The notes beneath the pieces are model-generated. The model saw nothing but the letters and a program-made list of their open reading frames with translations, was not told where the DNA came from and searched no databases. The position numbers and the translations under genes were made by a program. From the IMG/VR virus record IMGVR_UViG_2713896774_000001, positions 1 to 29,255 of that record: DNA of 29,255 bases, one strand, 5' to 3'. This DNA comes from a virus (Duplodnaviria > Heunggongvirae > Uroviricota > Caudoviricetes). Positions 27,590 to 29,255 of the stretch are shown piece by piece; position 1 is the stretch's first letter, and every line of letters starts with the position of its first letter.

Positions 27590-28830
27590 TGGCAACAAAC
27601 AACTTTAAACCGTTCGCGACAGCGGCAAATGCTAACGTGACGGCCCAGGCTGACTGGGAATCGCTTCCGGCTCTGCTTTCTGGCTTCACGGCTGGCAAAG
27701 CTTCCAGTGCTCAGGTAAACAAAGCCATTCGACAGGCCAGCTTTATAGCTGCAGCGCTGGCGCAGTACACCGCCAACAAAAGCGGTCTGGATGTACTTGA
27801 TGATGGTGACCTGAACGGGTTTATCGCCAAAATGTCCGCCGCGTTCGGTAAGGATTTCCAGGCGCTTGACGCCACGCTGACGGCATTGGCAGGGCTCACA
27901 ACCGGTGCAAATAAACTCCCGTATTTCACTGGAACTGATACCGCATCGCAGACTGATTTAACTTCTGTCGGTCGAGATATTATCGGGAAAGGTACTATTG
28001 CTGACATTCTCACATACCTTGGAATGACAGACATTCTGAATGATAAACAGGATAAAAATGATAATCTGACATCATTGTCGAGCTTAACAGGAATACCGGA
28101 TGGGCTGGCATTTTTTACAGGTGCTGGAACAATGGATATGACAGCGCTGACTCAAAATGGTAGGGAAATTTTAAGTAAAAAAAACGTATCGGAAACTCTA
28201 CAATATTTAACACTTGGTGATGGAACAGGAAGGCTTTTGGGGGTTCAGGTATTTGGATCATCTGGGACTTATCACAAATCACCTGGTGTAACGAAAATTA
28301 TAGTGGAAGCCGTTGGCGGTGGTGGTGCCAGTGGCAATTTATCAGCAACAGCCTCAAATAACTGTGGTGTAAGTGCTGCCGGTTCCAACGGGGCATATGC
28401 TAAAGCATTTTTTTATCAGTCTATACCTGAATCCGTGCAAGTAACTATTGGAAGCGGTGGTGTAGCAGGAACAGGACCAGGAGGCTCTGGAGGTGACGGC
28501 GGGAATACAAGCTTTGGTGATTTGCTTGTATGCCCGGGAGGAAGGGGATCAACTCAAGTTCAGCAGGTACCTCCATTTTCAGGGGGAAGTGCAACAGAAG
28601 CACCAATTCCTACAGGGCAAGGGATTCTGTTCCATTCAGTTTCACGATCAAATTTATGTGGGGCACTTGGACTTGGTGATGATCAGGCGATTGGCGTTGA
28701 AAGTATAACCACTACTATGCTTGGGACATACGGTATTGGCGGGACAGGTAAATACAATAAGGCGTCATCAGGCCCAGCGACAGGAAATAATGGAAATCAG
28801 GGATATATTCTTGTGTGGGAGTATCAGTAA
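27589..28830 (+). CDS. Tail fibre protein with an AT-rich, Gly-rich C-terminal (receptor-binding) region
   Basis: Conserved-looking N-terminus (MATNNFKPFATAANANVTAQADWESLPALLSGF) and Gly-rich distal part (GGGGASGN..., GSGGVAGTGPGGSGGDGGN). Base composition shifts to AT-rich from about 27960. Confidence 0.75.
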   Translation: MATNNFKPFATAANANVTAQADWESLPALLSGFTAGKASSAQVNKAIRQASFIAAALAQYTANKSGLDVLDDGDLNGFIAKMSAAFGKDFQALDATLTALAGLTTGANKLPYFTGTDTASQTDLTSVGRDIIGKGTIADILTYLGMTDILNDKQDKNDNLTSLSSLTGIPDGLAFFTGAGTMDMTALTQNGREILSKKNVSETLQYLTLGDGTGRLLGVQVFGSSGTYHKSPGVTKIIVEAVGGGGASGNLSATASNNCGVSAAGSNGAYAKAFFYQSIPESVQVTIGSGGVAGTGPGGSGGDGGNTSFGDLLVCPGGRGSTQVQQVPPFSGGSATEAPIPTGQGILFHSVSRSNLCGALGLGDDQAIGVESITTTMLGTYGIGGTGKYNKASSGPATGNNGNQGYILVWEYQ

Positions 28831-29036
28831 TGAGCGATATTTATGCAGTCGTACAAAATGGTGTCGTTACAAATCTTGTTGTATGGGATGGTAAGTCAGA
28901 GTTTAAGCCAGAAAAAGCGGATATAGTTAAATGTGTTGGAGGTGTCGGTATCGGCTGGTTATATGATGGTGAAAAATTCATTAAGCCTTCCTTAAAACAA
29001 GACGACGTTATACTTACTGAGGGGAGAGCCAGTTAA
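28830..29036 (+). CDS. Small protein downstream of the tail fibre (possible fibre chaperone; uncertain)
   Basis: 68-aa ORF from ATG 28830, overlapping the fibre stop (TAATG), AT-rich like the fibre 3' half, followed by a terminator. Confidence 0.4.
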   Translation: MSDIYAVVQNGVVTNLVVWDGKSEFKPEKADIVKCVGGVGIGWLYDGEKFIKPSLKQDDVILTEGRAS

Positions 29037-29049
29037 TACACAGAGTGCC

Positions 29050-29082
29050 GGAGGGGGCAAACACCCTCCCATCTTTTAATTT
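29050..29082 (+). terminator. Intrinsic terminator ending the tail fibre operon
   Basis: GGAGGG-GGCAAACA-CCCTCC hairpin followed by ATCTTTTAATTT. Confidence 0.55.
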
Positions 29083-29223
29083 CTGCATAAAAAACAAATA
29101 AATATGTAATAACTTAACGTTTCTATAACTATAGTTAGTAATAAAATAATGATGACTTTTTGATGCGTTTAGAGATAAGATAATTACACATTTTTCTTCG
29201 AGTTTCTGAGGAGTTAAGTTGAA

Positions 29224-29255
29224 ATGAAGCCCTGCAAAGCCCTGCAAAGCCCTGC
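29224..29255 (+). repeat. Start of a downstream gene or locus: ATG followed by three tandem copies of a 10-bp unit (A)AAGCCCTGC, truncated by the window edge
   Basis: GAGGAG ribosome-binding site 11 nt upstream of ATG 29224, then GAAGCCCTGC-AAAGCCCTGC-AAAGCCCTGC to the last base. Preceded by a very AT-rich intergenic region (29083..29223). Confidence 0.5.

Follow-up and report, generated by a model that had tools for sequence, protein, structure and literature searches.

A decanucleotide repeat at the start codon of a prophage SGNH esterase gene: a putative neuO-like on/off switch in Escherichia coli

The 29,255-nt stretch of viral DNA analysed here, IMG/VR record IMGVR_UViG_2713896774_000001 (hereafter the window; overall GC 53%), ends in what we take, with a probability of about 80%, to be the beginning of a prophage cargo gene, the expression of which depends on a decanucleotide tract prone to slippage. 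The tract starts immediately after the initiation codon, and related E. coli loci reveal the rest of the gene, which encodes an SGNH/GDSL-type esterase. A preliminary description of the window had read its last letters as the beginning of a phase-variable contingency locus. The loci examined below support that reading, since the esterase is in frame in only one copy-number class of three and copy number is polymorphic.

The window contains the greater part of a temperate phage that has a contractile tail and a lambdoid early and lysis region, and its genes run in the order terminase, portal, sheath, tape measure, baseplate J, wedge protein, tail fibre and a small gene of 68 aa. Its nearest deposited relatives are Citrobacter phage Omnitron and Salmonella phage SEN34. 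The left edge is occupied by an IS66-type insertion element, in which ORFs of 115 and 113 aa lie upstream of the transposase gene (Table 1). Both ends of the window thus lie in repeated DNA, the insertion element on one side and the decanucleotide tract on the other, which suggests that the window is an entire short-read contig bounded by two repeats.

Table 1. Features of the window that bear on the esterase locus, with positions counted from the first nucleotide of the window.
Feature	Position	Strand	Description
IS66-type insertion element, left window edge	42-2314	minus	512-aa transposase (phrog_688, E 4e-261)
Tail fibre gene, 419 aa	27571..28830	+	PHROG tail fibre families, best 2.6e-85; outside the switch
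68-aa gene directly 3' of the fibre gene	28830..29036	+	phrog_14370, function unknown
Intrinsic terminator of the fibre operon	hairpin 29050-29069, with T-run to 29079	+	GGAGGG-GGCAAACA-CCCTCC, then a T-rich run
AT-rich leader	29076-29223	+	148 nt, 23.6% GC against 53% for the window
Shine-Dalgarno sequence GAGGAG	29208-29213	+	10-nt spacer to the ATG; kept in all E. coli loci and in Citrobacter
Esterase start codon ATG	29224-29226	+	fits the conserved MKP(C/Y)KAL N-terminus of the Citrobacter orthologue
Decanucleotide tract (AAGCCCTGCA)n	29227-29255	+	TRF: period 10, 2.9 copies, 100% matches, score 58

The fibre operon closes with an intrinsic terminator, at which a terminator scan returned three overlapping terminator-like matches (29050-29079) against 0.2 expected from shuffles. 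The very AT-rich DNA and the ribosome-binding site that the preliminary description had placed after this terminator are both present (Table 1). The cassette presumably has its own promoter in the AT-rich leader. This promoter is predicted; a scan of 29076-29223 gave no sigma-70 consensus site at the threshold used, and the best -35/-10 pairs picked by eye were 4/6 plus 4/6 candidates that we do not claim as a promoter. When the sequences are set side by side, the last ~100 nt of the leader are visibly conserved in the Citrobacter orthologue of the gene.

Downstream of the Shine-Dalgarno sequence, the array of three tandem 10-bp units behind an ATG was found as described (2.9 units), but the ATG begins at 29224 and not at about 29225, as the preliminary description had implied. 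The unit proposed there, AAAGCCCTGC, is AAGCCCTGCA rotated by one base. The last letters of the window after the ATG read AAGCCCTGCA AAGCCCTGCA AAGCCCTGC, with the first unit directly abutting the G of the start codon. Because the window stops within the array, three units are a lower bound for its copy number. A 19-nt two-unit pattern, searched with up to two mismatches, has a single site in the window, and 100 dinucleotide-preserving shuffles contained no instance of it. On the minus strand, a TTG-initiated ORF of 77 codons (29014-29247) spans the terminator, the leader and the first tract units; it is taken to be a chance ORF in AT-rich DNA.

Among 5,426 complete E. coli genomes, only NZ_CP035822.1 (strain WS4437A-1) matched the end of the window, and the cassette is therefore rare. 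In this chromosome the leader and ATG are as in the window and are followed by 5.9 units and then by a frame encoding LLLLMFLMAFWVLGFVSHKYRIPP... and a GDSL-type esterase; downstream lie the integrase gene intS and host genes. A route through protein collections gave another 32 E. coli loci; in 31 of these the tract is resolved in full. One of these, on an E. coli contig (L031, GCA_024493375.1), is 100% identical to the last 3032 nt of the window and continues it to the right with two more units (n = 5), a 232-codon esterase frame, an IntS-type integrase gene and tRNA-Arg(CCT), which is argW. The rightward extension that the preliminary description had called for thus leads through the array into the esterase gene and on to the integrase. 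On this contig the esterase gene lies between the fibre module and int/att and is therefore the last gene of the prophage, in a cargo slot at the prophage end. This slot is the classical position of lysogenic-conversion cargo. The integrase gene is convergent with the esterase gene, and the DNA between the two contains a long imperfect inverted repeat, CACAAAGCTTTGCA ... TGCAAGGCTTTGTG, just 3' of the esterase stop codon (L031 3750-3835; L001 9895-9980). This repeat could serve as a terminator in both directions or belong to the attachment region.

Other properties of the gene also fit cargo. Its GC content is 32%, compared with 53% for the phage; it follows a terminator, sits at a prophage end and is found on several phage backbones. 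On these different backbones the cassette has at least three kinds of tail or regulatory neighbour (Phage_Wedge1-, Mu_Gp48- and P22_AR-type genes), and it is found beside several different host genes. In loci L017-L048, one integration site is argW, with an IntS-type integrase gene and nearby genes for a Form_Nir_trans protein and MlaA. Other sites are by purK, by a phosphatase gene and rsmF, by biotin-synthesis-type genes (Aminotran_3, Radical_SAM+BATS), by an xdhC-like gene and by Mn-catalase genes. Wherever an E. coli or Citrobacter contig extends far enough upstream, an equivalent of the 68-aa gene is found ahead of the cassette.

BLAST comparison of the last 6 kb of the window with the fetched loci showed 97-99% identity to other cassette-bearing backbones from ~28016 onward. 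This position lies inside the fibre gene, at about residue 150 of the protein, where the conserved N-terminal PHROG match stops, and the shared segment reaches the esterase cassette. The fibre tip, the 68-aa gene and the esterase gene therefore often travel together. Some E. coli prophages carry the fibre tip and the small gene (annotated StfP) without the esterase gene, and there the match stops near 28988. Four short-read contigs begin at the terminator, three at 29058 and one at 29059. Together with the differing upstream sequence in other contexts, these contig starts place the left boundary of a mobile cassette at about this point.

Wider searches returned few relatives. No match to the esterase region was found in the phage GenBank collection, even with the search set to "distant" sensitivity, and a protein-guided scan of a one-genome-per-species collection found no relative of the esterase. 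Searching the latter collection with the repeat as a DNA pattern gave 13 single matches in unrelated taxa, which we ascribe to chance, and a metagenome scan gave an unrelated GC-rich gene that happens to begin MKPCKALL. Of two IMG/VR matches, L015 was also put down to chance; L016 is a genuine relative, and its contig likewise stops inside the tract, at four units where the window stops at three.

Unit counts in the 32 resolved E. coli loci were n = 2, 3, 4, 5, 6, 7, 9, 10, 12 and 13, and every unit was perfect. The commonest count, n = 5, was found in 12 of the 32, a dominance that may reflect clonality. To compare loci on a common background, flank haplotypes were defined as 160 nt upstream plus 720 nt downstream of the tract (880 nt), identical base for base. 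Five such haplotypes each hold between two and five different copy numbers: n = 2, 3, 4, 5 and 6 on haplotype 0; n = 3, 5 and 7 on haplotype 1; n = 7, 9 and 10 on haplotype 2; n = 10, 12 and 13 on haplotype 3; and n = 5 and 7 on haplotype 4. Since the counts differ on identical flanks, the tract must change far faster than point substitutions build up. Differences of this kind between isolates are fast evolution, from which reversible high-frequency switching does not necessarily follow; that switching is also frequent and reversible within a clone is what we infer.

In a low-complexity region such as this, the copy-number differences, together with the contig ends at the tract, could be artefacts of sequencing or assembly. 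Many short-read contigs do break exactly at the tract, as the window and L016 do within it. Twenty contigs carry a "partial" esterase protein (P0042), and the six of these that were read, plus L022, begin one base past the tract. Such breaks are compatible with long or mixed arrays in the isolates concerned. However, the differences consist without exception of whole, perfect 10-nt units, they recur in a large number of assemblies made independently at different centres, one of which is a finished chromosome, and arrays of 20-130 nt fit within the length of an Illumina read. Proteins predicted for n = 8 and n = 11 have moreover been deposited independently. We consider an artefact of this kind scarcely credible.

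Translation of the array in all phases for n = 1-14 gave a full-length protein only at n = 2, 5, 8, 11 and 14, so the frame of the downstream ORF depends on copy number, as had been anticipated from the unit length. When n = 2 mod 3 (ON), the ATG is fused to the esterase frame, with products of 239, 249, 259 and 269 aa for n = 2, 5, 8 and 11. When n = 0 mod 3 (OFF), translation yields a short peptide, MKPC...SPAIINVFNGVLGSRIC, ending ...IINVFNGVLGSRIC before the stop codon, and when n = 1 mod 3 (OFF) it stops at TAT TAT TAA, two codons past the tract. The preliminary description had offered a 10-residue peptide repeat with a 30-bp period as the alternative to a frame switch, and this too is correct: each set of three units in an ON allele lengthens a short lysine-rich N-terminal tail, ahead of the membrane helix, by KPCKALQSPA with its two lysines. 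As the sole explanation of the tract, a peptide repeat was rejected because the counts often differ by non-multiples of three. A promoter-spacing role was rejected because the tract lies 3' of the ATG, and an iteron or att site because the supporting context is absent.

The frame rule was used to write out ten ON proteins beforehand (n = 5, 8 and 11 on four allele backbones), which were then sought in public data by exact-sequence look-up. Five of the ten were found, and these comprise three n = 8 proteins and a single protein each for n = 11 and n = 5. Known ON alleles therefore span n = 2, 5, 8 and 11, of which n = 8 and n = 11 are known solely from database proteins and not from loci read as DNA.

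Fifteen of the 32 resolved loci are ON and 17 are OFF, a ratio from a biased sample, as the loci were fetched via chosen protein sequences. The 232-codon frame is intact in every OFF locus, which argues against simple decay. Two observations that the preliminary description had named as fatal to its own proposal, an array fixed at three units and the lack of a downstream ORF, are both contradicted: the array ranges from 2 to 13 units and differs on identical flanks, and the ORF behind it encodes a transmembrane helix and an SGNH esterase.

Within the esterase gene (L031 3001-3750) is also a run of eight A in the codons for GAKKIF. In one complete 4.95-Mb E. coli genome, which holds two cassettes, one esterase copy is split at this A8 tract into products of 83 aa (P0049) and 114 aa (P0046), while the second copy is an intact n = 8 ON allele (P0063, QTY37987).

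The frameshifted copy in that genome, the out-of-frame state of about half of the resolved loci and the rarity of the cassette (one in 5,426 complete genomes) are what one would expect of a decaying cargo gene, in which repeat expansion is neutral and OFF alleles are dead pseudogenes. We nevertheless judge decay to be very unlikely. In all 17 OFF loci the A8 tract is unchanged along with the rest of the frame, ON alleles occur at four lengths and on several backbones, and ON and OFF counts are found on identical flanks, which is the pattern of back-and-forth slippage and not of one-way loss.

Annotation of the locus in public genomes raises a further alternative. PGAP begins the esterase of NZ_CP035822.1 at an internal ATG, giving a protein of 198 aa, and other pipelines likewise use in-frame ATGs after the tract (MFLMAF..., MSVMGV...) in OFF loci. 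If the enzyme were made from such an internal start, copy number would be immaterial and the tract would be a microsatellite without regulatory effect. Some tract-independent translation from these codons is indeed compatible with the sequence. However, the membrane helix is missing from the 198-aa product and incomplete in the 229-aa product, one allele has ATA in place of the first internal ATG, and neither internal start has an evident Shine-Dalgarno sequence upstream. An anchor or signal peptide is near-universal among the homologues, so an enzyme without one would be mislocalised. In Citrobacter, by contrast with the internal starts, the upstream GAGGAG, the ATG and the residues MKP-KAL are all kept, and the protein begins there. 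On this evidence we regard exclusive use of an internal start as unlikely, and the tract-controlled start at 29224 as the start of the gene.

The Citrobacter orthologue, at 89% identity, occupies the same slot in prophages of the window's type and starts from the same GAGGAG...ATG, with a protein that begins MKPYKALQ.... Conservation of this N-terminus supports initiation at 29224. The 5' end of the Citrobacter gene reads ATG AAGCCATACA AAGCCCTACA AATTTTCA TATTATTAATGG, encoding MKPYKALQIFILLM..., in which AAGCCATACA AAGCCCTACA form two imperfect proto-units, in frame and without a perfect repeat. These letters are identical in all five loci printed, out of eight fetched by an exact-protein look-up that selects for identical protein. 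The E. coli tract thus resembles an ancestral N-terminal coding sequence that has been perfected and expanded, and from the comparison of the two sequences it looks as if it arose in this way.

Decanucleotide-type repeats were not found in the more distant homologues from Pectobacterium (50% identity) and Providencia (40% identity). Other runs occur at the 5' ends of such genes. The Providencia homologue has TTG followed by A9 (L069 8001-8015), the Pectobacterium homologues have a T8 run within the membrane-helix codons near the gene start (L063-L066), with a database variant (P0061) that reads as expected from T7, and a further slippage-prone run lies at the 5' end of the homologue in L071 (8001-8030). 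The genes of these distant homologues are AT-rich, and such runs may therefore be due to chance.

Behind the tract, the 232-codon frame specifies a single transmembrane helix near the N-terminus, together with an SGNH/GDSL esterase domain in which every catalytic block is present (FLGDSIT, NFGIGGN, MGGVND and DGTHLN). Pfam assigns it to PF13472 Lipase_GDSL_2 (57.3 bits; cut-off 32.9) and PF00657 Lipase_GDSL (41.6 bits; cut-off 23.6). NCBIfam and PADLOC assigned no family, and the best PHROG match was phrog_14008, of unknown function, with a weak second match (phrog_6102, E 6.5e-06) that belongs to the moron category and carries the label lipase. Ser89 (GDS), Gly109, Asn140 (GxND) and Asp226/His229 (DxxH) are invariant across the 39 homologues aligned, and nearly all of these proteins have either a hydrophobic anchor or a cleavable signal peptide at the N-terminus. 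From these N-termini the catalytic domain is predicted to lie outside the cytoplasm, probably facing the periplasm.

An AlphaFold model of the protein (pLDDT 92) shows a long helix at residues 14-36 followed by the SGNH fold, and a structure search with this model gave more than 100 SGNH matches in the PDB at E <= 0.001. The sialate O-acetylesterase of Phocaeicola (Bacteroides) vulgatus (6NJC / 6XPM / 7PZG) is the solved structure closest to the protein in both sequence and fold, with E 1e-20 over residues 67-246, a TM score of 0.86 and an rmsd of 1.8-2.0 A, at an identity of 30% that does not allow the sialate O-acetylesterase specificity to be transferred or the protein to be classed as EstA-like. 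The same SGNH catalytic blocks are present in both enzymes. Unlike the prophage protein, the solved chains are ~200-220 residues long, align only from query residue 67 and lack anything equivalent to the membrane helix and the juxtamembrane segment. Next among the structural matches are uncharacterised Bacteroides acylhydrolases and PAF acetylhydrolases. Those members of this set that have been characterised have small acyl (acetyl) groups as their targets.

The Providencia homologue is again located at a prophage end, where it adjoins a tailspike gene. On one metagenome contig (L071 5670-8678, a single instance), a 44%-identical homologue lies directly 3' of a 651-aa Acyl_transf_3 + SGNH gene of the OafA/OafB type, a neighbour that hints that the family acts on O-acetylated surface carbohydrate. 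No AT3 or Gtr gene was found alongside the esterase gene in the E. coli loci examined. Taken together, the structural relatives and the gene neighbourhoods of the homologues make O-acetyl groups of a cell-envelope glycan the probable substrate. Both this substrate and the direction of the reaction, removal or transfer, are guesses that draw on the 30% identity and the gene position. With a single transmembrane helix and no AT3 domain, the protein would not import acetyl groups by itself, which makes an esterase role likelier than a transferase role.

The closest parallel to this arrangement is neuO of prophage CUS-3 in E. coli K1, in which a heptanucleotide VNTR (5'-AAGACTC-3', poly-psi) begins 2 nt past the start codon, only multiples of three units leave the gene ON, and each three units encode the heptad RLKTQDS (PMC3046976; PMC13001214). 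Natural copy numbers run from 2 to 93, and roughly two in three complete genomes are OFF (PMC3046976; PMC13001214). Like neuO, the esterase gene is an E. coli prophage cargo gene that is predicted to act on carbohydrate O-acetylation. Both genes have a non-triplet tandem repeat at the start of the coding sequence (offset by 2 nt in neuO and by 0 nt here), both are translated in full in one copy-number class of three, and in both three units form an N-terminal peptide repeat, RLKTQDS in one and KPCKALQSPA in the other. The copy-number range is wide in each case, though 2-13 so far for the esterase gene against 2-93 for neuO, and ON and OFF genomes coexist.

The two genes differ in other respects. 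The esterase unit is 10 nt long, in contrast to 7 nt in neuO, its sequence is unrelated, and the ON state falls at n = 2 mod 3 and not at n = 0 mod 3. NeuO is a left-handed beta-helix acetyltransferase and a soluble cytoplasmic enzyme, whereas the esterase is a membrane-anchored, probably periplasmic SGNH hydrolase with no homology to it. The carriers are also distinct: CUS-3 is a P22-like podovirus, and the esterase gene is borne by contractile-tail prophages of the SEN34/Omnitron type. The esterase locus is thus a mechanistic analogue of neuO that stands outside the NeuO family, given its SGNH rather than LbH fold and its unit of AAGCCCTGCA.

Simple-sequence contingency loci of Haemophilus and Neisseria are the wider class to which such switches belong. 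These loci mostly have 1-7-nt units, are chromosomal and are found in small-genome, host-restricted pathogens. Tetra- and pentanucleotide tracts in LPS and outer-membrane genes are examples. The esterase locus is like them in having an in-gene non-triplet repeat, translational ON/OFF control that would act by slipped-strand mispairing, and a presumed link to a cell-surface feature (PMC2651432, PMC11475388). It has the sequence hallmarks of the class: a perfect tract in the 5' coding sequence, a non-triplet unit, copy-number variation, and natural ON alleles beside intact OFF alleles. It is unlike them in its 10-nt unit, in its host, E. coli, which has few such loci, and in being prophage-borne.

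The position of the gene recalls serotype-converting modules, such as gtrABC of P22/SfV-type phages and oac of Sf6, which also occupy the slot between tail-fibre or tailspike genes and int/attP. In those modules the lysogen alters its surface polysaccharide, and we presume the same logic for the esterase. GtrABC and AT3 acyltransferases add glucose or acetyl groups, and phase-variable gtr operons are controlled by Dam/OxyR epigenetics and are not known to use a repeat. An SGNH domain takes part in surface carbohydrate acetylation in the AT3-SGNH proteins OafA and OafB (PMC7448272). The esterase differs from these in having a single transmembrane helix and no AT3 domain.

A tract-controlled switch would be expected to work as follows. 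Slipped-strand mispairing at replication would add or remove 10-nt units and so shift the frame. One phase in three would give a membrane-anchored, probably periplasm-facing acetyl-esterase, and the other two would give short peptides. In ON cells the enzyme would remove, or possibly transfer, O-acetyl groups on O-antigen, capsule or a similar surface glycan, and the changed acetylation may in turn change recognition by phages and antibodies. A lysogen population that holds both states would be heterogeneous for a phage-receptor or antigen feature.

A more specific form of this proposal is tentative, and the odds are somewhat against its being correct in every part. It envisages an undescribed phase-variable lysogenic conversion in which the periplasm-facing esterase deacetylates O-antigen or capsule, the tract toggles the enzyme, each lysogen clone contains both receptor states, and the Citrobacter gene represents a locked-ON ancestor from before the repeat. 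Under this proposal the nearest solved structure makes sialic-acid-containing glycans a possible target. By analogy with heptad number in NeuO, the length of the KPCKALQSPA tail might also tune the level or activity of the enzyme. If the proposal is true, the esterase switch would be the functional mirror image of NeuO.

To our knowledge, repeat-driven contingency genes typify pathogens with small genomes and are regarded as rare in E. coli, with neuO as the textbook case. In the literature searched, coverage of which is incomplete and which took in decanucleotide phase variation in E. coli and prophage SGNH esterases in lysogenic conversion, we found no description of this locus, of its repeat or of a phase-variable E. 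coli prophage esterase. The esterase locus therefore seems to add a second E. coli case, apparently an undescribed one, to the neuO type of on/off repeat switch. It is unusual in its 10-nt unit, in encoding an esterase instead of a transferase and in having a visible evolutionary precursor. The tract at the start codon doubles as an N-terminal peptide repeat, and its origin appears traceable to the imperfect two-unit sequence seen in Citrobacter.

These findings have practical consequences. Public genomes mis-annotate the locus, with the gene begun at an internal start or marked "partial", and the tract breaks short-read assemblies. The locus could account for unstable serological or phage-typing behaviour of carrier strains, and it offers a simple system for measuring slippage of 10-nt units. 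More broadly, a second, unrelated prophage gene built like neuO suggests that temperate phages repeatedly evolve stochastic switches for surface-modifying enzymes.
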